Part shown: positions 4,032 through 63,953 of the stretch, piece after piece
Position numbering within the stretch: position 1 is the first letter of the stretch
Layout: each line of letters begins with the position of its first letter
Origin: a virus
Strand: one strand, 5' to 3'
IMG/VR virus record: IMGVR_UViG_3300037560_000207
Coordinates: 1-64,000 of that record
DNA: 64,000 nucleotides
Program-made: the position numbers and the translations under genes
Notes under the pieces: generated by a model
Database searches by the model: none
Told to the model about the DNA's origin: nothing
Seen by the model: only the letters and a program-made list of their open reading frames with translations

Positions 4032-4102
4032 TAGCGGGAGGGAGATTCGAACACCCAGTACGTGCTTATGAAGCACGTGTGTTGCCATTACACTATCCCG
4101 CA
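4032..4102 (-). tRNA. tRNA with CAT anticodon (Met-type), U1/U72 mismatch
   Basis: TGCGGGA/TCCCGCT acceptor, GTGT/ACAC D-stem, CGTGC-TTCATAA-GCACG anticodon arm, TTCGAAT T-loop; CCA not encoded. Confidence 0.8.
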
Positions 4103-6370: not shown

Positions 6371-6390
6371 TATAAAATAATTCCTTTTAA

Positions 6391-6736
6391 TGGAGACGCG
6401 GGGAATTGAACCCCGGTCCAGCGATAAAATTCAATAATACTTCTACGTGCATAGTTGATTATTTAAATCTCGGAGCCACAAACGCCAACCAACAGGCTTT
6501 TATTTTTCCACATCAGACTATTATTTCATATTGATCCGGTCGAATATCAAATCAACACTAGCCCACTGCCATCGTCAATCAGAATAGTAGGCGTCTTCCA
6601 ATTAACGGACTGCTTAAGCAGCCATTTTTAAACGAGCTTCGCCGTTTAAGATTATCGCCAGTTTTTTAACGAGGCCAACTGACAACCTCGGCACGCAACA
6701 TCACTTTCACTTACCCTGTCGATTCCTATCGTCCCC
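6391..6736 (-). ncRNA. ssrA: tmRNA, tag reading frame GEARLKMAA*
   Basis: GGGGACG/CGTCTCC-A acceptor with G3:U70, GGAATCGAC 5' motif, T-arm CGGGG-TTCAATT-CCCCG, internal frame TAAAC-GGC GAA GCT CGT TTA AAA ATG GCT GCT TAA. Confidence 0.92.
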
Positions 6737-22376: not shown

Positions 22377-24149
22377 TTATAGGATTAAAGTGTACCTGTA
22401 TTTATGACCTAATGGAATACGAATCCATCCCCGTTCTTGGGCTAATTCTCGTTCGGTTTTATCTATATTTTTGATTCTCCTACATGATGATTTATGCATT
22501 AATTTTAATGCTAATGGATCAAAATATGCATAACTTGGTTGTGTCTTTCCGGCTTTGTCCCATTTAGCCATTCTGTAAACACCACCATTGTGTCCAACGG
22601 ATGAATCAGCAAACGATATAAGTTTTTTAATTTGTGTATAGTTATCTCTTATATATTGACAGCATTGATTAAGAAAATCACAACTAAAGGGACGCACGAC
22701 ATAGAAAGGAATGCATAAACGTGTAAGCTCCCAAGTGTTTTTCTCTATATACTTATTTGTTCCAATTCCGAAAGTGGCTATTCCGATAATTATATTACCT
22801 CTTTTGGCCACTAAAATAAGTTTTGATCCAGGAAGAGTACCTAAATAATGCTCGTATCTTATGATTTGTCGTATTTCTTTGGTAGCTGAGGCTTGTATAT
22901 AATACTCGATAGGTTGCAATTGGCCATTATCATCAAATAATTGGAAATCATTATGTGTTAAATCACTGCGTTTAATAGCGAAATCTGGATATGCTTGCCA
23001 TATTTTCCACCAAGGATGTGCTTGTTCCAACTTCCCCTCTTCTATTTTGTCATGCTCTTCTTTTGAAATAACCAAACTATTATTCGCATCATAAAATCTT
23101 GGATCATTTATAATAGCTAAATTGCGATATTCATCTAATAATGGGGAATGTTTTGTAATTGATGACCGTAATATAACATGAAATGGATAAATATGATGAC
23201 AATTTAATTCTCTAATTTGTTGATCAGAAATTTCGCTTTTATATTGTTGTCTGGAAAAAGCATCTGTACGCCACTGTGAAGAAGCAGCGCAACTGCGTAC
23301 AGCATTGCGAATATCGGTTACACCACCTTTCCAGGAACCATTATTTTCACCGATATTTTTTCTTCGTTCTTTTCCAATTGCTATGAATCTTTTTAATACA
23401 AATTGAGAACTTTTATTAAAATAAGCAGAAATTTTCTCACACGACCAACCACATCCGTCATATAGGTGAATTAATTGTTCATCTGGTATTTCATCGCTAC
23501 CTCTCCACAATCTAGCCCCGCCAGACACTGTTCGTGTTCCACGACCAGATTTTTTAAGATGTTTTTTAACAAATCCATGGCTCTTTCCTAATTTTTTAGC
23601 AGTTTCAGCGATACTTAATTTTTGGTTCCAATATAAATCGATTATCTTCACATCATCAACGGATTTATCTGTTTGTTGTTCGCCAACAGAACGAATTTTA
23701 ATACCATTTTGCTTTAATCTACGACGGATAACAGAACTACTTACTCTAAATTGTTCTGCACATGCCGTAAGGCTCAATTGTTGCTCTAGATACAAAGTTA
23801 ATAATTTTATTCTATCGATTGGTATTGTTCTTGAAATTCCACCGACCCTGAGTAATTTGACTCCAGCTTCTTTGAGTTTCTTTTGGACCAAGGAAACAGA
23901 AATATTATATGTTTTGGCTATATTTTTGGTGGACATTTTGTTAGTCTCATAATCATATTTAATTCTATCTGAATCGATCGTACTAGGAGCTTGTCCTTGC
24001 GGTCTCAACGGGATTTTGGCTTCCTTGAATCTATTGATAATTGTTTGAAGATGGACTTTAAATATTTTTGCTATTTGCGACGTTGATAAGCCATCATCTT
24101 TATATAATATAGAAGCTTTCTCTAGGTCAAATTGTTTTCTATGAGCCAT
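22377..24149 (-). CDS. five HTH repeats + HNH-like domain + C-terminal Mom/Hef-like GNAT domain
   Basis: GENNGSWKGG, LNCHHIYP...EEHDKI; HYLG...GIATFG...WELTRL...LISFADSSVGHNGGVYRMAKW. Confidence 0.7.
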   Translation of the reverse strand: MAHRKQFDLEKASILYKDDGLSTSQIAKIFKVHLQTIINRFKEAKIPLRPQGQAPSTIDSDRIKYDYETNKMSTKNIAKTYNISVSLVQKKLKEAGVKLLRVGGISRTIPIDRIKLLTLYLEQQLSLTACAEQFRVSSSVIRRRLKQNGIKIRSVGEQQTDKSVDDVKIIDLYWNQKLSIAETAKKLGKSHGFVKKHLKKSGRGTRTVSGGARLWRGSDEIPDEQLIHLYDGCGWSCEKISAYFNKSSQFVLKRFIAIGKERRKNIGENNGSWKGGVTDIRNAVRSCAASSQWRTDAFSRQQYKSEISDQQIRELNCHHIYPFHVILRSSITKHSPLLDEYRNLAIINDPRFYDANNSLVISKEEHDKIEEGKLEQAHPWWKIWQAYPDFAIKRSDLTHNDFQLFDDNGQLQPIEYYIQASATKEIRQIIRYEHYLGTLPGSKLILVAKRGNIIIGIATFGIGTNKYIEKNTWELTRLCIPFYVVRPFSCDFLNQCCQYIRDNYTQIKKLISFADSSVGHNGGVYRMAKWDKAGKTQPSYAYFDPLALKLMHKSSCRRIKNIDKTERELAQERGWIRIPLGHKYRYTLIL

Positions 24150-34707: not shown

Positions 34708-35710
34708 ATTTATGCAATCTAGCTATTCGGAAAAGATCAGCCAATCTATTAAAATATGTATGATTTTGAGCTACATATTCTACGCTAGCCCTAATCTTAT
34801 CAAAACGCTGTGATTGATCCTCTACAAGCCCAATTACTTTATTTATAAAATTAGTTGTACTAATAGCTATTTCACAATGCTTCCCAAGATATTTAGAAAT
34901 CATAGGATTATCAGATACTTGAATGCCACCACACAACGGAATCATGAATGATCTTTCATTGACACATGCTTGAAGCTTTACCTGTTTTACTGTATGAACA
35001 TTAAGACATACTTTAGCTGTTGCATAAACATGAGCTAATTTAACAATATCTAGTGGACCATTATAATTAAGACCAGCTAACTGCCAAATGTTATCACCGA
35101 ATACTTGATAAGAATAACCAAGTAAATCTAACCTCTTAAACAATGGTTCAATCAAATGTTTCATAATATCTTGTCGGTGATTAAAATTAGCAACCATCGC
35201 AACATCAGTTAATACTGAACATGTTGACGGCAATGCTTTAACCATATTCCCCGCCACTGGTAAATGCACAAGATTACTATTCTGCCAACCACGCATATAT
35301 TCAAACCATAAATTAGGCTCCAAACGAGTATGTACAATAACTTCTTTAATTTCTTTTATTAAATCTGGTTCATCATCATGAGCAAATTCATATGGTCCAT
35401 CTATTGTAGCATTAGCCGGATTCAAAGGTAAAGCATCAATAATTACCACCACCTGATTATCATTTATAACTTTAATAGGTAGTTGTCTTATACCATATCT
35501 TGAAAAAGTCATAATTAATTGAACTCCATATTTTTCAATTAATTCACGACAACCTAATTTAGTCTTGGGATTTCCAACATATACTTTCCAACCAAGATAT
35601 CGCAAAGCATCAACATAACCATGTTGTATCATTTTTGATGTCATCCCAGGACGCGGAATATATAGAGCACATTTATTCATCATCATTCTCCCCGAAATCA
35701 GTATCTGCAT
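34583..35710 (-). CDS. glycosyltransferase (CgeB/GT1_2-like)
   Basis: YATAKVCLNVH...NERSFMIPLCGGIQVSD...HTYFNR. Confidence 0.75.
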   Translation of the reverse strand: MQILISGRMMMNKCALYIPRPGMTSKMIQHGYVDALRYLGWKVYVGNPKTKLGCRELIEKYGVQLIMTFSRYGIRQLPIKVINDNQVVVIIDALPLNPANATIDGPYEFAHDDEPDLIKEIKEVIVHTRLEPNLWFEYMRGWQNSNLVHLPVAGNMVKALPSTCSVLTDVAMVANFNHRQDIMKHLIEPLFKRLDLLGYSYQVFGDNIWQLAGLNYNGPLDIVKLAHVYATAKVCLNVHTVKQVKLQACVNERSFMIPLCGGIQVSDNPMISKYLGKHCEIAISTTNFINKVIGLVEDQSQRFDKIRASVEYVAQNHTYFNRLADLFRIARLHKYEEDVKTKGQRAAVRHCWEIDARLCAEERGIPYEQKVIGTS

Positions 35711-36599
35711 CCATAATTATTGGTTCAACACTACCATCAGGAAACTCAATAGATTTACGAAATTCATTTGTAATATCTTCAGCAGCAATCTTTGTTAATT
35801 CAGCAAAACGCCCCTGCTTATCTCTTTCGTCTTGCGAATGTTGTAATTTGGTTACTAACTCCAAAAATGTCTGCTTGCCTCCACTAAGTTCTTCTAAACG
35901 ATCTTTACGAGTTGCGGCCAAACTACTATAAATTTTCTGTCGTTCTTTCACTAATGCATCATAACGATCATATGCTGCTTTAGTATATCTGTGTCTATCG
36001 TCTAATTGTCTCTGTTGTAAAATACGAAACTTAATAGTATCTTTGTTTTCTTCTTCTTTCTTAGGATTCTCGATAAACCATATCTGTAAATCAGCAATTT
36101 GTCTTTGTAATAAACGAGTTAAAATCAATTGTCTATCAATCAGAAGTCTATGTTTCAAAAAATCATCGATCTGCATAAATTCACTAATAACAATATCTTC
36201 AAATTGACAACATAGAAGACCAAAATCTTCTACATATACAGCCACTTCTTCTGATTCAAATTGTTTCTTAATAGTTATATATAAGTGTGTCTTTTTGAAT
36301 TGATCTCTAAACCAATGAGCTTTTTCACCATCAGAAAGTCCATGTGGTGGTAAGGTGAGCATTGGACCATCTAATACATCAATATTAATAGACTGACCAG
36401 GCTTCTTAATCACACCCATAGCACGACGGCGTCTACCAATAGTATCGAGAGTCCATTTGTATCCACATTCCTCTATCAACCGTTGCTGAATCTTTTTATC
36501 ACTTAGATCTTGTTTTATACAATCAACAAGAATTTTCAATGCTTTAGGATTAGAAGATAATCTCTGATTTTTAATTTCTGACACCATCTTCTCTCTCAC
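35673..36599 (-). CDS. HTH + coiled-coil protein, candidate terminase small subunit
   Basis: N-terminal LSDKKIQ..L....G.KW...TIGRRRR; upstream of TerL in same operon; TerS role is inference. Confidence 0.4.
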   Translation of the reverse strand: MREKMVSEIKNQRLSSNPKALKILVDCIKQDLSDKKIQQRLIEECGYKWTLDTIGRRRRAMGVIKKPGQSINIDVLDGPMLTLPPHGLSDGEKAHWFRDQFKKTHLYITIKKQFESEEVAVYVEDFGLLCCQFEDIVISEFMQIDDFLKHRLLIDRQLILTRLLQRQIADLQIWFIENPKKEEENKDTIKFRILQQRQLDDRHRYTKAAYDRYDALVKERQKIYSSLAATRKDRLEELSGGKQTFLELVTKLQHSQDERDKQGRFAELTKIAAEDITNEFRKSIEFPDGSVEPIIMDADTDFGENDDE

Positions 36600-41573: not shown

Positions 41574-42016
41574 ATGGTAGAAATGTGGCTAAGATTATAT
41601 GTGCATGGTGTGGTGATTCGTTTGAGAAATCCCAAAAACGTATCAATCAAACAAAAAAGTTAGGACAAAAACATACATGTTCAAGGAAATGTGCATCAGC
41701 TTTAGTTAATAAATCACGTAGGTCAGAGCCAACCACAATCAATGCTGCGAATGTACGTCGAGACAAAGACAAGTTCCCCGAAAAGGATCGCGCACGCTAT
41801 CTTGTAAGACAAGCTGTAAAATCGGGTAAACTTATTCCATTGGAAGAATGTGAATTCTGCGGGTCTGAAGATCATGTGGAAGGACATCATTCTGATTATT
41901 CAAAAGCATTTCTATTACTATATCTTTGTAAAGATTGCCATTACGATGCAGATAATTCAATAGATAAATGGGAAAATTTAGCTACAGATTATTCAGATGT
42001 GTGCGGATCAAATTGA
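41570..42016 (+). CDS. zinc-finger/HNH-like protein
   Basis: CAWCG...CSRKC; CEFCG...EGHHSDYSK...LCKDCH. Confidence 0.7.
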   Translation: MNGRNVAKIICAWCGDSFEKSQKRINQTKKLGQKHTCSRKCASALVNKSRRSEPTTINAANVRRDKDKFPEKDRARYLVRQAVKSGKLIPLEECEFCGSEDHVEGHHSDYSKAFLLLYLCKDCHYDADNSIDKWENLATDYSDVCGSN

Positions 42017-42459
42017 CGACATTGTAATTTATGTTGATATGGCAAACAATAACGGGTTAAATTAAATGGTATCAATCCGACATCCGTTTCATTCTTATTC
42101 AATATTATCCTTACAGCCTTCTTACCACATACAAATGCTGAAAATGTTTCTGCATTTGTCCCGAGACTTTTTCTCCAATCTGGAAGCAATGCTATTCCAT
42201 TACATTTATTGATTATAGCATCTAAATCTCTAATCATACACTCAGCAAATGATGATTCTAAATAACTTCCATGCTCAGCCGGACTCCAAATAGTAAACCC
42301 CTTTTCTCGAAGTAAACGAGCCACTAAGGTAAACATAGGTTTGTTCAATTGCGGAATACCTCGCATACTTCCCGCAAGATAGAAATCATATCCATCTTTT
42401 TTCTTCGATTTAATATAGTTCGATGGTCCTGATAATGCCCTAAAAAATTCATTCCACAT
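41989..42459 (-). CDS. DUF4406 / nucleoside 2-deoxyribosyltransferase-like protein
   Basis: YLAGSMRG...WSPAE...DLDAI..CNGIALLPDW.KS.G...E. Confidence 0.75.
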   Translation of the reverse strand: MWNEFFRALSGPSNYIKSKKKDGYDFYLAGSMRGIPQLNKPMFTLVARLLREKGFTIWSPAEHGSYLESSFAECMIRDLDAIINKCNGIALLPDWRKSLGTNAETFSAFVCGKKAVRIILNKNETDVGLIPFNLTRYCLPYQHKLQCRQFDPHTSE

Positions 42460-49076: not shown

Positions 49077-49772
49077 TTAGAATCCTACACCAGCCCTAAT
49101 AGTAGGCGGTCGTCTGTAATTGATGGCTTCGATAAAGACAAGACGCCATTCTCTATATAGGGAATACACTTCTCTGTAGTATCTCCCTCCGGTGATTGAT
49201 TGATGATACATAGCTTTACAATAGTCATATGCACGCAATTGAGATTTGTTAAGTTTAGAAATATTGGCCTTTGTTCTCTCAAGAACCGTATGCCAGTGGA
49301 TAACTTTATCTCTAGCGGTATCCCACCATTCCTGCGGGCTTGGTTCTCCTTTGGGATGATTTGCTAGACCCTCAAAAAATGACGCAGTGTATTCGCACAG
49401 ATCACCAAATAATAAATCATCTGGATTAACATTTCCGAAACAGTCTTCTAGGATCATTTGAGTTTTATTAGTTGCGGATAAACGTTTCTTTGAATTCTTA
49501 ATAGCTGTTACAGATTTGAGAGGTTTACAAAAGGAAGCGGGCATTTCCCTTAGAACCCCCAATCCTCGACGCCTTCTTCCTATGGTACTTGTGTCCCATA
49601 GATGGCCGAAACTATCATACAATTTTTGACTGATGTCTTTATCTGATAAACCATTCTTAGACATGTGTTCAAGAGCAAGCATCGCTCCTTTGTTGTTACT
49701 TAAATTCTTTTTGTTCATAACCATTTCCTCCAAGCAAGCTAACCAAAGATTTATACGATCCATCGCTACCAC
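49077..49772 (-). CDS. HTH-domain protein sharing its N-terminus with 35673..36599
   Basis: LSDKDISQKLYDSFGHLWDTSTIGRRRRGLGV. Confidence 0.65.
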   Translation of the reverse strand: MVAMDRINLWLACLEEMVMNKKNLSNNKGAMLALEHMSKNGLSDKDISQKLYDSFGHLWDTSTIGRRRRGLGVLREMPASFCKPLKSVTAIKNSKKRLSATNKTQMILEDCFGNVNPDDLLFGDLCEYTASFFEGLANHPKGEPSPQEWWDTARDKVIHWHTVLERTKANISKLNKSQLRAYDYCKAMYHQSITGGRYYREVYSLYREWRLVFIEAINYRRPPTIRAGVGF

Positions 49773-49876: not shown

Positions 49877-50207
49877 GGCCCTCCGATTTTTTTTGGCTTT
49901 TTTGTGGGGTAATAACGCGATTGATTTAGGGGTTGAAAAAGGGGTGTACCCCAAAAGGTGGGTGTTAAGGAGAGAAAAAGTGTACATGAAAAGTTGTAGG
50001 TAATGTGAAAAATGAGCCGGGTATGCCTAACCCCCCGCACGGTTATTGGACCCAGATGAGTTATCGGACCGTTTATAAAACGGGCCGCGCCCCTGTTTTG
50101 TCCTATAAACAGATACCCACGCCTACAAAGTTATCGGACTATTCTTGCTCGACTAGCAAGGAAAGTTATCGGACATAAAAAAGATTTTATTTTACTATGT
50201 TATAGGC

Positions 50208-50236
50208 TTGCATTCTCGGGGGCGGTATGCTACAAT
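50208..50236 (+). promoter_or_regulatory. sigma70-type promoter for plus-strand small genes
   Basis: TTGCAT-N17-TACAAT with TG extension. Confidence 0.7.
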
Positions 50237-50254
50237 ACAGGTAGAAAGAGAGGC

Positions 50255-50431
50255 ATGGAAACGATGAATTACCAGACTCTAATCACAAATGCAATGGGTT
50301 GGCTAGCCGATGATCCTATCAGAATTGCATGGATTATCGGAATCGTTGTGGTGCTCGGAGCGGTAAACGGTATTTATCGGTCGCTCGGACATTGTAGGAA
50401 TATCGGACATAGTGGGCGACGTATCCTATAA
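50255..50431 (+). CDS. small membrane protein
   Basis: Manual ORF METMNYQTL...IAWIIGIVVVLGAV...; GAGG RBS. Confidence 0.55.
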   Translation: METMNYQTLITNAMGWLADDPIRIAWIIGIVVVLGAVNGIYRSLGHCRNIGHSGRRIL

Positions 50432-50525
50432 CGATAGGGGTAATAACGATGTTTTGGTATCGGATTATCTGGTGTGCGGTGGTAATCACAGTTATCGGTA
50501 TGTGGTAGGTTATCGGAGGGACAAA

Positions 50526-50612
50526 ATGACCATCATTATCGGATGTGTGGTTTTAGTGATTATAGGAGCCCTTGCGATATGGGGCGTGTTTAACGACATT
50601 ACCGGACTATAA
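50526..50612 (+). CDS. 28-aa membrane peptide
   Basis: GGAGGG RBS, MTIIIGCVVLVIIGALAIWGV. Confidence 0.45.
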   Translation: MTIIIGCVVLVIIGALAIWGVFNDITGL

Positions 50613-50626
50613 CAGGAGCGGTAACT

Positions 50627-50887
50627 ATGTTCGGAAACGCTACAATCGACATACCAGGAAACGGAGTTATCGGACCAACACACATGGAAGGATTATCGGA
50701 CCAACTTGCGTTGTGTATGGGACGTATCGCAGCGATGACGTTACCGGATGCCTTCATTACAGTTATACTTGAAGGCGGAATATTGGTAGTTATCGGATGT
50801 GATAAGTTCAACGGCGAGATTGTTATCAGACGTTGTAGTGGTTATCGGGAATATGCCAATAACATAGTAGGAGGGCCTATAATATAA
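50627..50887 (+). CDS. hypothetical protein
   Basis: AGGAG RBS. Confidence 0.6.
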   Translation: MFGNATIDIPGNGVIGPTHMEGLSDQLALCMGRIAAMTLPDAFITVILEGGILVVIGCDKFNGEIVIRRCSGYREYANNIVGGPII

Positions 50888-51234
50888 TGGGACCACTAGA
50901 AGTTATAGGACCGTATGCTGGTACTGTAATAACTACCAGAAAGACGGACGTTCCCGCGACCAATAACCCACCCAATGGTACTTCTATACTTATCGGACTA
51001 CTCATGCTCCCGTTGGGGTTATTAGCCCTTGTATTTATAGGACTATACGTGTGGGCATACCGATTTCCTTTGTGTCTTATTGGACTAATCGTTATCGGAC
51101 TATGGGCGTGTGCCCATTTTGGGTCCAATAAACCACTAATAAGGTGGCATAGAAAGAACAGATTATCAGACGAGCAACGTGCTAGAATCGAGCGCAGATT
51201 ATCAGACATCGAACGACAGCCGGGGCTGCAATAG
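50887..51234 (+). CDS. two-TM membrane protein
   Basis: AGGAGG RBS; hydrophobic hairpin. Confidence 0.6.
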   Translation: MGPLEVIGPYAGTVITTRKTDVPATNNPPNGTSILIGLLMLPLGLLALVFIGLYVWAYRFPLCLIGLIVIGLWACAHFGSNKPLIRWHRKNRLSDEQRARIERRLSDIERQPGLQ

Positions 51235-51290
51235 TCTGATAATAGTAAAGGCTAGTTTAGTGTGTCGAAGTCATACATAGGGGAATTACG

Positions 51291-51647
51291 ATGAGAAACG
51301 TAGTTATAGGACAGACCGGACGGATTCCATTATCAGACGATGCGATCATGCGTAAACTGTCGCATAGACGAACGGTCCGATATCAGTACGCAAAGGCAAA
51401 GCACGGGTGGATAGCATGGGTTTGCGGACCTTTTCATTCCCGGACCTACGGAGCGTGCGCGTTTGGGACCGATAAAAGAAGGAGTAGAGTCTCGCTTCAA
51501 AGGCGGTTGGCTAATAATTATCGGTATCTAGGTCTTATGCTACACTCGGACGTGGACGATGCAGATAACGTGGGCAACGTGGACGATAGGTTATTGGACG
51601 TGGGCGTGGTCAATAGGGCGATAACTGAAGGCGTTTGTCGCCTGTAG
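51291..51647 (+). CDS. hypothetical protein
   Basis: GGGG RBS; 118 aa. Confidence 0.6.
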   Translation: MRNVVIGQTGRIPLSDDAIMRKLSHRRTVRYQYAKAKHGWIAWVCGPFHSRTYGACAFGTDKRRSRVSLQRRLANNYRYLGLMLHSDVDDADNVGNVDDRLLDVGVVNRAITEGVCRL

Positions 51648-51856
51648 ATTATTGGACACAAAACAGGAGAAAACTTATGGGACTAACGGTGAAAGAATTA
51701 AGAACCGCTTTAAGGGAGTTAGCAGACGATTGCCAAGTTATATTATCGGTCGAGGATGATAATCCACCAGTACCGATAATCCACGAGACGGAGGCAATCG
51801 GCGCAATTGTCGGTCCTGGGGTAATCAAGATTCTCGGAACAATGCACTACCGCTAA
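51635..51856 (+). CDS. hypothetical protein (start probably MGLTVKEL)
   Basis: AGGAG RBS; TVKEL...L...DD.QV pattern common in phage small proteins. Confidence 0.55.
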   Translation: MSPVDYWTQNRRKLMGLTVKELRTALRELADDCQVILSVEDDNPPVPIIHETEAIGAIVGPGVIKILGTMHYR

Positions 51857-51868
51857 TATCTAGGAATC

Positions 51869-51891
51869 GGCCCGATTTTATCGGGCCTTTT
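51869..51891 (+). terminator. Rho-independent terminator
   Basis: GGCCCGAT-TTT-ATCGGGCC-TTTT; stem contains a TTATCGG copy. Confidence 0.7.
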
Positions 51892-52082
51892 CCATGCGCA
51901 TCTCGTAACATTATCGGACCATCACTTTTGCGTCTTGCTTTCATTATCGGACAGGACTGCATTATAGGTCTTGTCTGGAAACTAACTTACCCTGTCTGTA
52001 ATATTGTGGATGTTATTCGACAGTAGTGATAATATCGTTATTTTTATAGGAACAAAAAATGGTTATCGGAGTATAATAAGTT

Positions 52083-52616
52083 ATGGGAACTACCTACGCA
52101 CTACCAGTTATTGGACGAAACTACGAGTTATCGGCTATCGTGGACGTGGAGGATTATCGGACACTTAAGTTATGGGAATATAGGTGGTATAGAGTTATCG
52201 GAACCAGCGGTATCACTTATGCTCAGACCAATATAAACGGTAAAATGATTACCCTCCATCGCTTAATTATGGGAACTACGGATCGGCCAAGGTCCGTATG
52301 TGTAGATCATATTGATAGAAACGGACTTAATTGTTCTCGGACTAATATGCGTATAACCGATAATACAGGCAATCAAAGAAACGCTCGTAAACATTTATCG
52401 GCCAATCCCACAAGTTCCTATAAAGGTGTCCGACATATGGGTCCAAAATATCGGACCAAACCTTGGCGCGCAGAAATTACATTATCGGATAGCCAACCAC
52501 AACACATTGGAACTTATCGGACTCAAGAAGACGCAGCAAAGGCTTATAATAAAGCGGCCATAAAATTATTTGGACCTATGGCACGATTGAATGTTATTAG
52601 ACCCAAATCCACCTAA
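52083..52616 (+). CDS. HNH-AP2 homing endonuclease
   Basis: LHRLIM...VDHIDRNGLNCSRTNMR; AP2 SSYKGV...WRAEI...IGTY.T.EDAAKAYN.AA..LFG..ARLN. Confidence 0.9.
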   Translation: MGTTYALPVIGRNYELSAIVDVEDYRTLKLWEYRWYRVIGTSGITYAQTNINGKMITLHRLIMGTTDRPRSVCVDHIDRNGLNCSRTNMRITDNTGNQRNARKHLSANPTSSYKGVRHMGPKYRTKPWRAEITLSDSQPQHIGTYRTQEDAAKAYNKAAIKLFGPMARLNVIRPKST

Positions 52617-52809
52617 AAAACATATCGGACTGTGTTTTTGTCCAGTAATATCGTTATTCTTACCTAAAAAATACGGTTATTTTCAACCTAGCATAATATA
52701 TCCTATCGGACTTTAGTAAACGGACGTAATTATTATCGGCTAGGACGTTATTTGCCGATAAAAACACGATTGGCGCGCCAAAAACACCTAAAAAAAACCT
52801 ATATAATGT

Positions 52810-52838
52810 TTGACCTATTGTATAACTACCCCTATAGT
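52810..52838 (+). promoter_or_regulatory. sigma70-type promoter upstream of structured region
   Basis: TTGACC-N17-TATAGT. Confidence 0.6.
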
Positions 52839-52869
52839 ATAGTGTAGGATAAGAAACCATAGGGTTATA

Positions 52870-53160
52870 AGACAGTGTGATAACGGGGAAGCGCCCTACC
52901 GGAAGCGGAGTCTCAAATCCGATAGTCTTGGGAACGTCCCACCGAGATTGTGGGTGAGCGTCCGACAGAGTGTTTGCTCGGGGCGCGAGCCCCGGTATAG
53001 GACGTTTCTCCGTTATCATTCCGACGTGACTATCATAGTCACCGATAATAAGTGATCTACGCAATGTAGGTCCGAATAATGATTCCGAGATTCACTACTT
53101 GCTCGTCCTATAATCGGGACGGAGTAGTCTCGGTATGGGACGGGCAATAACTCTTCTTGC
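52870..53160 (+). ncRNA. candidate structured RNA / long 5' leader
   Basis: 15-bp closing stem GATAACGGGGAAGCG/CGTTTCTCCGTTATC, GCGA and GCAA tetraloop hairpins, further nested stems. Confidence 0.55.
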
Positions 53161-53172
53161 AAGGAGAATTGT

Positions 53173-53520
53173 ATGCCGTCTAGTTCCACAATTGCCGAGT
53201 CTACCACAGCTAGTGGTACGGAATTCGGGTCCGCTGAATTCATCGAGAATGCTGTCTCTTATGCGGAACACAGGGCGCTCGTCAACGCCGCGTCCAAGTA
53301 CGATAACTTGGATGATGCACAAGCCGCGCTTTCTACCGTTTGGGCAGCGCTCGTTGAGCAATCCCAACAGGGTGGAGGGTTTACGCCGTCTGTCGAGTTG
53401 GGGTTCGGGTCTGATAATGCCTCGCAGATCGCGTTTGCACTTATCGGACAACGGAGTCGAGTCACCGATACCCGTAAGGCTATGGTAGCCGTCGGTAAGG
53501 CGAATACGCCGAGCACGTAG
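53173..53520 (+). CDS. 115-aa orphan protein embedded in structured region
   Basis: AAGGAG RBS 6 nt upstream; Ala/Ser-rich, helical-looking. Confidence 0.65.
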   Translation: MPSSSTIAESTTASGTEFGSAEFIENAVSYAEHRALVNAASKYDNLDDAQAALSTVWAALVEQSQQGGGFTPSVELGFGSDNASQIAFALIGQRSRVTDTRKAMVAVGKANTPST

Positions 53521-53525
53521 TATCT

Positions 53526-54086
53526 ATCGCACCGCGTCTCTAACGTCCAGTAACTCCGGTGGATGATGCCGTTAGGGACGTGGACCGATGGGTATTCTAA
53601 ATCGCTTAGTGGGTGGCACCCATATTGACGGTCAATGATCGTCTAACATAGGCACGCTGTTTGTGTCAGCGATTCCCATAACCCTTTATCACAGCGGGGA
53701 GTCCGATAAGCATCGGGTATACCCGGACGGGGTTGGTCTAGTCCGATAGTCCGCCGTAGTAGGGTCTGTCGAACGTGCAGGATGTGCGCTTCGGGTCTGA
53801 ACCGGAGAATTACGGTTATCGGTCGAAGCCAATCTTAGAAGCGACAAAACGTAGGATTCGAGAATACGAATCCAGTCTACGCCGATAATATGGGCGAGAT
53901 AAGTAACGGTCTTGTCTGCGCAATTCCCTATATGGCGCGCACGGTTCTGGTTCAGCGCCAGATAGCGCTCTGTCTAGGTATAATTGTGTTGACTATCGAA
54001 CAAGACGTTATGGGAATACGTCCGTGGTTCGGTGTAGGCAAGTTAAATCGTCGTGGGATAGGCATATCCTAATGACGGGTTTTTTT
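53526..54086 (+). ncRNA. candidate large structured RNA ending in terminator-like hairpin
   Basis: 14-bp stem 53532-53545/53570-53583, GGATTCG/CGAATCC, CTTGTCTGC/GTAGGCAAG long-range stem, GGATA-GGCA-TATCC plus U7. Confidence 0.55.
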
Positions 54087-54099
54087 GTCCCTGTCGATA

Positions 54100-54830
54100 A
54101 ACTTTTCTATGCAGATGGTCTAGTTTATTATAGCTGACAATACGCTGGGTCGGATAATAGAAAACGGCGCGGAATACACCTGTCGGGATTGGCATTGAAA
54201 CAGTAAAACGCAAACGGGTAGAATGCGTGTAGCTGTTTCCTTGTAGCCGAACGACACGACGCGGCGGCAGTAGTAAAGCTGGAGTAAACCGACTGTCCGG
54301 TCCAGTGGCGCGCTAGCCCGTCGTTATAAAGTACACAAGAAACAGTCCTATCTGTGATAAGGGTTCGTTTATTCGGATTCCGGTACACTAACTGACAGTA
54401 AAGTAACGGTAGGGCTTTGTACATAAAAAGCAGAGGTAGGGCCTACGGGCCGGGAAGTTAAATCGTATTCTCCATAGAAGAGTCGATAAAGAACATTGTT
54501 CGAGCCGTGTCGATCTTTAATAATTGGAGAATAGATTTAACGGCAAACTTGGTGGGTTAGTTTGTCAACTTTTGGAGTGTTCCCGAGAAGTTTGGATCAC
54601 CATTCGTCAGAGGAACGGGGAGCCTGCCGTACCAGTTTTGGTGGAAATTCTGGTACACTTTTTACGATGACATATCACTACGGACTGCAATCTAGCCAAT
54701 GGGAATAACGTGTTATATATTAGCCAAATCGACGAATGAGGTATAGAGCGCCGTCTGAGGGTTTGGGTTTAACCTGATCGCCTATAATAGGCGGCTCATC
54801 TATACTTTGTCGTCGGGCGTACTTAATAGA
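54100..54830 (+). ncRNA. candidate structured RNA
   Basis: 17-bp stem 54457-54474/54525-54541, GTACCAG/CTGGTAC, GACGA..GGTATAGA/TCTATACT..TCGTC; no credible ORF. Confidence 0.5.
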
Positions 54831-56147: not shown

Positions 56148-56220
56148 GGGGACATAGCTCAATCGGTAGAGTAATCGACTCATAATCGATCGGTTAAGGG
56201 TTCAAGTCCCTTTGTCCCCA
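56148..56220 (+). tRNA. tRNA-Ile2(CAT), or Met
   Basis: Full cloverleaf; anticodon arm ATCGA-CTCATAA-TCGAT resembles lysidine tRNA-Ile2. Confidence 0.9.
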
Positions 56221-63819: not shown

Positions 63820-63831
63820 ACGGTAATCTAT

Positions 63832-63905
63832 AGGTCGGTAGCTCAGTTAGGTAGAGCAGTTGATTTTTAATCAATTGGCCGTGAGTTCGATTCTCACCCG
63901 ACCTA
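63832..63905 (+). tRNA. tRNA-Lys(TTT)
   Basis: AGGTCGG/CCGACCT acceptor, GTTGA-TTTTTAA-TCAAT anticodon arm, TTCGATT T-loop. Confidence 0.9.
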
Positions 63906-63953
63906 GTAAACCTATGGAGTAGTTGGTGTATAAGTCTTGGGAGGATAAGATTT

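Follow-up and report, generated by a model that had tools for sequence, protein, structure and literature searches.

A kilobase-scale, one-way array of predicted Xer half-sites around a dif-like core in an uncultured phage

Known Xer sites and other arrays of short sites

Xer/dif recombination is among the most conserved DNA transactions in bacteria, with a single dif site per chromosome. The accessory regions known for it, as in cer and psi, are short stretches to which other proteins bind, and to our knowledge half-site arrays are not a feature of Xer systems. The only mobile elements that we know to exploit Xer/dif are IMEXs (the CTX, VGJ and TLC phages and a gonococcal island), which are small, depend on host Xer proteins and carry one attP. 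Extra copies of a recombinase motif in direct orientation beside a core are present as DR1 and DR2 of Tn4430 TnpI and as subsites II and III of res. Phage T7 carries dense, polar arrays of the short word CCTAAAG upstream of early promoters, and their function is, as far as we know, not settled. In cluster A mycobacteriophages, an immunity repressor (L5 gp71) reads ~20–35 stoperators, which are 13–14 bp long, intergenic and distributed genome-wide (PMC9283540, PMC6550527).

The locus described here belongs to an uncultured phage with a 181,360-bp circular assembly (overlap, 127 bp), for which we found no DNA match among GenBank phages. We analyzed a window of 64,000 nucleotides, positions 1 to 64,000 of IMG/VR record IMGVR_UViG_3300037560_000207. 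We put at roughly even the chance that its array is a kilobase-scale, one-way set of predicted half-sites for an Xer-family tyrosine recombinase around a dif mimic. The phage shares with dif systems the XerC-arm word, a core of the 28-bp type and an Xer-family recombinase with all catalytic residues, but in place of a lone site it has one core plus 45–90 one-way XerC-type half-sites laid over genes. Like IMEXs, it places a dif mimic on a mobile element, the centre of its core is that of candidate host sites, and several other motif-bearing phages have a core without a recombinase of their own; unlike IMEXs, it is 181 kb long, has an Xer-type enzyme of its own and carries a large half-site array as well. 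Tn4430 and res have 2–4 accessory sites in ~100 bp of non-coding DNA, whereas the phage has tens over kilobases of genes. Stoperators resemble the array in that they are numerous, asymmetric, aligned with transcription and bound by a monomer, but the phage sites are packed in one block and have the form of an Xer arm. The T7 arrays are similarly dense and polar, but cover ~340 bp of non-coding DNA at mapped ends and use a different word. We found no published description of a polar half-site array, a dif look-alike and an own Xer-type recombinase together in one phage.

Identity and distribution of the word

The window holds 47 matches to TTATCGG, against 8.7 ± 2.9 in shuffled sequence, and 0/100 shuffles reach 47. 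Between 50,061 and 53,888 there are 36 copies, 29 on the plus strand, as the initial annotation had counted, and 7 rather than 6 on the minus strand. Plus-strand TTATCGG occurs 6 times in the remaining 177 kb of the genome, and the 50–55 kb bin takes 29/35 of these copies genome-wide. For the full 9-mer TTATCGGAC, 12/13 plus-strand genome copies fall inside the same bin. When one mismatch is allowed, the bin has 43 plus and 11 minus sites and the remaining 176 kb has 16 and 23, respectively, so that a single 5-kb bin contains 43/59 of the plus-strand sites. Genome-wide k-mer enrichment and strand bias, which the initial annotation had proposed to check, thus both place a plus-biased concentration in the 50–55 kb bin. 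It had also stated that it knew of no described system with this motif; there is one, since a widespread dif variant has this word as the arm bound by XerC.

Myxococcus xanthus and Anaeromyxobacter dehalogenans have dif sites whose XerC-binding arm is GTCCGATAA (PMC2731167), the reverse complement of TTATCGGAC, and the TTAT end of the array word corresponds to the inner end of Xer arms; the word therefore matches a natural XerC arm. The pattern GTCCGATAA-N6-TTATG is found in 84/201 Planctomycetota genomes, almost always in single copy (5 control hits in total), and in 11/101 Bacillota genomes. By sequence, the word is the XerC-arm half of a dif type found in Planctomycetota, Myxococcota and part of the Bacillota. 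Searching the literature for the word itself returned only primers. Some Planctomycetota genomes also carry it in excess over a reversed-word control, an excess that is partly a coding effect; in one planctomycete (G160), many copies look coding, for example in VIGQ and FIGQ contexts. Word arrays with a 21-bp period in Bacillaceae behave as the ends of a MITE-like repeat, which has 174 copies in one Neobacillus genome, and are probably unrelated.

An alternative is that the resemblance to a XerC arm is coincidental and that the early region is silenced or gated by a coat of some non-Xer phage regulator, either a stoperator-like monomeric repressor or a small ribbon-helix-helix protein. In its favor, the asymmetric sites point the same way as early transcription, the array begins in the early promoter region, and the distances between sites suggest a cooperative coat; polar, asymmetric sites are already known from stoperators (PMC9283540, PMC6550527). 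However, a chance 9/9 match to a natural Xer arm in the right polarity is improbable, and a conserved dif-like core and near-identity to planctomycete sites would be left unexplained. The sites are also clustered, lie in genic and intergenic DNA alike, and come with no repressor candidate. We found no DNA-binding protein common to the 17 motif-bearing genomes, and blastp and iterated HMMs over 70 loci and 17 genomes found no shared neighboring protein; proteins encoded within the array are clade-specific. The initial annotation had nominated two HTH proteins (at 35673 and 49077) as binders, but they are paralogues without a family match, and the one at 49077, beside the array, has no counterpart beside relatives' arrays. 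We consider such a regulator unlikely. Families that are common to motif-bearing loci are nucleotide-metabolism enzymes and a trypsin-like peptidase. A MazG-like gene (PF18909) had raised the idea of a Z-genome, but there is no PurZ.

Layout of the array and the genes beneath it

The array consists of the following elements:

49980..50042, no strand: conserved non-coding left boundary, element GTGTACAYGAAAAGTTGTAGG and a C-run just 5′ of the first site
50043..52711, plus strand: forward array, in which R-TTATCGGAC-B recurs 43 times with zero or one mismatch
52686..52713, minus strand: complete dif-like core, with GTCCGATAG (XerC-type arm), GATATA (6-bp centre) and TTATGCTAGGT (XerD-type arm)
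52733..52761, no strand: inverted pair TTATCGGC-N13-GCCGATAA in an AT-rich gap, where site orientation switches
52755..54157, minus strand: array tail, with sparser and mostly reversed sites, a 51% GC patch, a conserved ORF and an ORF-free stretch

In the forward array, every copy corresponds to a half-site of the XerC-arm type, oriented so that TTAT, its inner end, is at the left. A logo gives an informative length of ~11 bp, and no left arm is visible for the 40-odd half-sites. Distances between neighboring sites peak at 24–27 bp and 33–36 bp, a quantized spacing that is as expected if proteins with a footprint of ~25 bp were packed along the DNA. The polar orientation reported for the region before ~52.75 kb is confirmed, with 43 plus-strand matches spanning 50,043–52,711, the opening 2.7 kb of the early genes, and reversed copies dominating from 52,755. 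Irregular spacing and unrelated flanks rule out a CRISPR array or tandem repeat, in agreement with the initial annotation, and Rfam and tRNA scans found nothing within the array.

At the left boundary, which was aligned by eye between the window and five related loci (L120, L122, L123, L430 and L431), the minus-strand and plus-strand gene arms diverge and GC content climbs from ~35% to ~45%. The conserved element (49,980–50,000) includes an 8-bp palindrome, GTGTACAY. All six relatives examined have the same word and the same layout of a sharp start at the arm divergence, a long forward run and a short reversed tail, and arrays in the clade comprise ~45–90 sites over 2.5–4.5 kb. The array recurs within independent contigs assembled from different samples, which rules out the assembly artefact that the initial annotation had named as a refutation. 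Clusters of the word are also present in unrelated phages (70/119 loci versus 1/120 for the reversed-word control). These are smaller, and several have one core: G018, G035, G037 and G051 each carry one exact CCGATAA-N6-TTAYG core within the kilobase in which their sites are densest, while T7-like and giant-protein groups have no exact full core.

The cumulative GC-skew minimum at 48–50 kb could mark a replication origin or partition site, with the sites as iterons at a switch of gene arm and skew. Strand switches host the clusters in several other phages, and the head-to-tail repeats lie ~25 bp apart. But skew is confounded with gene orientation, the number of sites and the length of clade arrays far exceed known iteron sets, and the array runs for 2.7 kb over genes with no initiator, ParA/ParB-type or other partition family alongside. 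Reading the word as a non-canonical DnaA box fares no better, as no clusters were found next to dnaA in two genomes. An origin or partition role thus looks highly improbable.

Alternatively, the array might be a genome-end element for DNA entry, end protection or packaging, comparable to the polar CCTAAAG arrays that lie within and beside T7's terminal repeats. These arrays, upstream of the early promoters, have 11 forward copies within the first 338 bp of T7 and 5 within the last 270 bp. In T7-like contigs, TTATCGGAC clusters follow the large-terminase gene, beside C/G-run palindromes and before a sigma-70-like promoter, and in the window a C-run precedes the array start. Against this, the assembly is circular through its 127-bp overlap, the array is internal in several contigs, the word is missing from cultured relatives of the T7-like contigs, and the dif-like core would have no explanation. 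"DTR" flags proved to be assembly overlaps of 99–144 bp, and cluster position relative to locus ends is uninformative since locus ends are not contig ends. We therefore regard a genome-end element as very improbable. More broadly, the pac/TerS sites, parS-like centromere, iterons, KOPS-like cue and ejection signal first suggested for this region gained no specific evidence.

Sites of the array overlie or lie among the following open reading frames:

50255..50431, plus strand: small ORF of 58 aa, homologues in two relatives, no family match
50627..50887, plus strand: small ORF of 86 aa, clade-conserved, no family match
50887..51234, plus strand: small membrane-like ORF of 115 aa, 7 plus-strand sites, weak match to a membrane-protein PHROG
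51291..51647, plus strand: ORF of 118 aa, kept in every relative, no Pfam domain
52083..52616, plus strand: HNH-AP2 homing-endonuclease gene, 8 sites in all three frames
53,173–53,520: conserved ORF in the array tail

Several observations support the view of the initial annotation that selection acts on the DNA and not on the proteins. Of the 43 plus-strand sites, 17 fall outside homologue-supported ORFs and 26 fall within them, at frame offsets of 7/14/5, which bears out its claim of genes read in all three frames. Since these ORFs account for 63% of the array core, sites are as dense in genes as out of them. Spacings between neighbors are not multiples of three, which excludes a repeated peptide, another explanation that it had named as a refutation. 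In orthologous genes, sites occupy conserved positions in three frames. The proposed comparison of synonymous sites in relatives gave synonymous-codon identity of 64.6% inside sites versus 42.4% outside, although the test is in part circular, since the sites were picked out by their sequence. The 118-aa ORF, a clade marker gene with at least 236 distinct homologues, has invariant VIGQ, LSD, FSD and LLD that are the DNA word in different frames; an AlphaFold model of its product (pLDDT 59) was too poor for use. The homing-endonuclease gene is missing from relatives' arrays, yet bears sites in the window.

The core, the recombinase and a possible mechanism

The core is a two-arm site of the 28-bp type: arms of 11 bp end inward in ATAA/TTAT and flank a 6-bp centre. 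In the window, as in L430, L122 and L120, it occupies the distal end of the forward array, and exact-pattern matches fall at that end in L123/L431 and L030. Relative to single-copy sites of two Planctomycetota genomes, the window core agrees at 23/26 positions and has the same centre, GATATA. In one archaeal-labelled MAG chromosome that carries a similar array, we found no integrated copy flanked by dif and no dif-like site above background nearby.

The recombinase gene lies outside the window at 111,620–112,537 of the genome, ~60 kb away from the array. Its 305-aa product carries PF00589 and PF02899. Its scores against the XerD model, which it matches over the full length (225 bits), and the XerC model (210 bits) are both below equivalog cut-offs, and all six catalytic residues (R-K-H-R-H-Y) align to E. 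coli XerD 1A0P. The phage thus has an intact Xer-type gene of its own. Orthologues are present in G001 and G002, the only other clade genomes complete enough to judge; all three phages encode an Xer-type recombinase, contrary to the pattern of an IMEX with none of its own. A strong tyrosine-recombinase match is absent in 13/15 other near-complete motif-bearing genomes; G018, G035 and G051, which each have a core, gave no recombinase match.

These features fit the protein-binding zone that was originally suspected, here as predicted Xer half-sites. The sites are probably read by the phage-encoded Xer-type recombinase, by host XerC and XerD, or by both. On its own, XerC binds its arm weakly, and one Xer recombinase on a dif half-site is a direction-dependent block to the FtsK motor (PMC2800217). 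From word, core and recombinase we infer binding and a purpose as follows. Recombinase monomers would occupy the half-sites, all facing one way, and would concentrate a weakly binding enzyme beside the core, favoring recombination there. Through it the phage could integrate into the host dif, or its genome could be cyclized or its dimers resolved. The same monomers would act as a direction-dependent barrier, letting rightward traffic such as early transcription pass and halting motors from either side at the core. The half-sites themselves are probably not crossover sites, since 45–90 direct repeats of an active arm should cause deletions.

One other possibility is that the amplified array serves as a sponge, titrating host XerC/XerD to block dimer resolution or Xer-dependent rivals with no phage recombination. 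The word equals the XerC arm of candidate hosts, it is present in very many copies on DNA that enters or is expressed early, and clusters also occur in phages without their own recombinase. Yet the weak binding of XerC alone (PMC2800217) argues against titration, strict polarity, quantized spacing and a conserved complete core would all be unneeded, and blocked dimer resolution brings no clear benefit in a lytic cycle; a sponge seems quite unlikely.

Extending the half-site reading beyond this clade, we tentatively suggest that diverse phages of hosts with GTCCGATAA-type dif use a half-site antenna or barrier around a dif mimic that may capture XerC/XerD and perhaps FtsK, for integrase-less integration at dif or for motor steering, with early genes overwritten by 45–90 sites in the clade. 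If true, a half-site array around a dif mimic would be a new use of a tyrosine recombinase, and the array could coat the DNA in one orientation, concentrate the enzyme locally or act as a polar roadblock. Since the dif type of such phages must match that of the host, it would also give a sequence-based host hint for many uncultured phages. The array is, moreover, a clear case of a DNA signal fixing "conserved" residues of the proteins that it overlaps.

Array position, site anatomy and conservation

The phage genome is a single contig of 181,360 bp whose ends overlap by 127 bp, indicating a circular assembly. The window, which covers the first 64 kb of this genome, contains 47 copies of TTATCGG; shuffles give 8.7 ± 2.9. 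Across the whole genome, the bin at 50–55 kb holds 29/35 plus-strand copies of TTATCGG and 12/13 plus-strand copies of the repeated word TTATCGGAC; at ≤1 mismatch, it holds 43 plus- and 11 minus-strand copies, versus 16 plus and 23 minus in the remaining genome. These counts bear out the local enrichment and strand bias described in the initial annotation. Its tally of 29 plus-strand copies also stands, but there are 7 minus-strand copies within 50,061–53,888 rather than 6.

Parts of the array (window positions)
50,043–52,711, plus strand: forward array, the dense and polar part
52,686–52,713, minus strand: dif-like core, GTCCGATAG, GATATA, TTATGCTAGGT in the minus-strand reading
to ~54,150, mostly reversed: array tail, with sparser copies

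The array starts exactly where a minus-strand gene arm (carrying terminase, portal, and tail genes) and a plus-strand arm diverge, where GC goes from ~35% to 45% and the cumulative GC skew is at its lowest. At the reversed tail lies a GC-rich patch (52850–54100, ~51% GC) that is largely ORF-free from ~53,521 to 54,086 and has no match in Rfam.

Sites follow the consensus R-TTATCGGAC-B, with about 11 informative positions. Among 43 plus-strand sites, 26 lie in homologue-supported ORFs (frame offsets 7/14/5) and 17 outside; since these ORFs make up 63% of the dense stretch (50,043–52,711), the array runs on regardless of gene boundaries. There are even 8 sites, in all three frames, within an HNH-AP2 homing-endonuclease gene absent from relatives. 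Pooled over five arrays, the spacing of same-strand neighbors shows sharp peaks at 24–27 bp (52 cases) and 33–36 bp (35 cases), separated by a gap at 28–32 bp. This quantised spacing argues for packed DNA-bound proteins. A peptide repeated in one frame does not explain the sites, as the initial annotation had held, because the spacing values are not multiples of three and all three frames are used.

The in-array ORFs are common to four IMG/VR contigs (G001, 160 kb; G002, 120 kb; G003, 77 kb; G004, 47 kb) at 35–55% amino-acid identity, and two more contigs (L430 and L431) were retrieved via an in-array protein. Every relative has one array of the same 9-mer with sharp bounds and the same layout, in which a conserved left boundary element is followed by 38–87 forward sites spanning 2.0–4.3 kb and then by a reversed tail with a GC-rich patch, and this layout is kept despite genome GC of ~32% to 50%. 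For one in-array protein of 118 aa, which lacks any Pfam domain, at least 236 distinct homologues were identified. Its codon alignment places the sites at conserved positions, and the invariant VIGQ, LSD, FSD, and LLD are the word in different reading frames. Across five in-array families, identical residues have identical codons in 64.6% of cases inside sites versus 42.4% outside (Fisher P = 5e-13), a partly circular comparison in which sequence pairs are not independent. Together with the use of three frames and of both genic and nongenic positions, this supports the earlier proposal that DNA rather than protein is under selection.

The word as an arm of dif

The initial annotation knew of no described system with this motif. 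That view has to be revised, as the word is the XerC arm of published dif sites (PMC2731167): Myxococcus xanthus dif is AGGTCCGATAA-CATGCG-TTATGTAAACT, Anaeromyxobacter dif is ACGTCCGATAA-TATGGA-TTATGGTAACT, and GTCCGATAA, whose ATAA end points toward the center of those sites, is exactly the phage word in reverse complement. The pattern GTCCGATAA-N6-TTATG is found in 84/201 sampled Planctomycetota genomes, almost always as a single copy (controls, 5 in total), and in 11/101 Bacillota genomes, which is the behavior of a chromosomal dif.

A complete dif-like core terminates the forward array in the window. An equivalent composite core lies at the distal forward-array end in L430, L122, and L120 (array loci of relatives), and exact-pattern matches occupy the same place in L123/L431 and L030. 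Genomes G018, G035, G037, and G051 each have one exact core inside their most site-dense kilobase. Two Planctomycetota genomes have single-copy sites that agree with the window core at 23/26 positions and have the same center.

The phage also encodes a tyrosine recombinase of 305 aa (genome 111,620–112,537; positions 1174–2091 of L503, a piece of the phage's own genome; PF00589 and PF02899), immediately 3′ of a ThyX gene (genome 110,731–111,558). It matches the XerD and XerC profiles end to end (225 and 210 bits, both below the equivalog cut-offs), and all of the catalytic R, K, H, R, H, and Y residues align to Escherichia coli XerD 1A0P. G001 and G002 encode orthologues, as do G026 and G037; no strong recombinase match occurs in the remaining 13 near-complete motif-bearing genomes.

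Word clusters in other genomes and further phage genes

We scanned viral contigs for two word copies 10–40 bp apart. Among the matches listed, 70/119 loci have at least three copies with unrelated flanks, compared with 1/120 for the reversed word, and GC at the listed loci ranges from 31% to 67%. These phages include T7-like podoviruses, giant-polyvalent-protein phages, and others. That the word is part of chromosomal dif explains how phages of very different GC have one word in common. A search for a reader protein common to the motif-bearing loci or genomes found none.

A four-site module (< > > >, spacing 24–26 bp) recurs in five IMG/VR contigs (L013, L071, L074, L099, and L106) directly downstream of a giant polyvalent protein gene (2,000–4,300 aa, ART-PolyVal domain), with G-runs after the module. 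The chromosome of Neobacillus sp. D3-1R (G053) has 174 copies of TTATCGGAC versus 34 of the control, in short inverted groups ~180–230 bp apart (e.g., 596,432–596,618) and in arrays of 21-bp period; these look like a MITE-type repeat with the word at its ends and TGTCCGATAA at its tip. In a MAG labelled Heimdallarchaeota (G057), 13 forward copies and 1 reverse copy of the exact word form a polar array (C1:92,091–93,612) within a 4.9-Mb "chromosome"; this may reflect integration or mis-binning of such a phage.

Other features of the phage
window 4032–4102 and 56148–56220: tRNA-Met genes
window 6388–6736, minus strand: tmRNA (Rfam, 158.6 bits), predicted tag peptide GEARLKMAA
window 22377–24149, minus strand: 590-aa protein with HNH/HTH-type N-terminal matches and a Mom-like DNA-modification domain
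window 63831–63906: tRNA-Lys gene
genome 117,421–120,348 (L429:9422–12349): ribonucleotide reductase large subunit, split by an intein that carries a LAGLIDADG endonuclease domain

A protein with a MazG-like dATP/dGTP diphosphohydrolase N-terminal domain (PF18909) and a DUF4406 protein are encoded at genome 132,747–133,181 (L423:7748–8182) and window 41989–42459 (minus strand), and each is common to a different subset of other motif-bearing phages. PurZ was not found, so a Z-genome is rejected. The minus-strand proteins at window 49077–49772 and 35673–36599 are paralogues that match no family; the longer has an orthologue in G001, and the array-adjoining one has no counterpart beside the relatives' arrays.

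A putative landing zone for Xer recombinase

Several readings each explain part of these observations, namely that an unrelated phage regulator reads the array, that it is a pure XerC sponge, that it is a genome-end element like the CCTAAAG arrays of T7, or that it is an origin or centromere. However, none accounts for the conserved full core, and all leave the near-identity of that core to host sites unexplained. Half-sites are unlikely to be crossover sites themselves, because active sites repeated in the same direction would cause the region to be lost. Our literature search found no description of Xer half-site arrays in phages.

Tyrosine recombinases bind as one monomer per arm. When bound alone to a dif half-site, a Xer recombinase halts FtsK arriving at its outer face and not FtsK arriving at its inner face, and XerC alone binds weakly to its own arm (PMC2800217). 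The inner (TTAT) end is on the left in every forward site and on the right in every tail site. Combined with the face dependence of FtsK, this orientation suggests that bound monomers would let traffic toward the core pass and would obstruct traffic leading away from it. Motors arriving from either side would then stall at the orientation switch point, the place of the conserved core, and the extra half-sites would concentrate a weakly binding recombinase beside it. From this polar traffic logic and local concentration, we read the array as a putative oriented landing zone for Xer recombinase, which may control recombination at the dif mimic, whether for integration at host dif, cyclisation, or dimer resolution.
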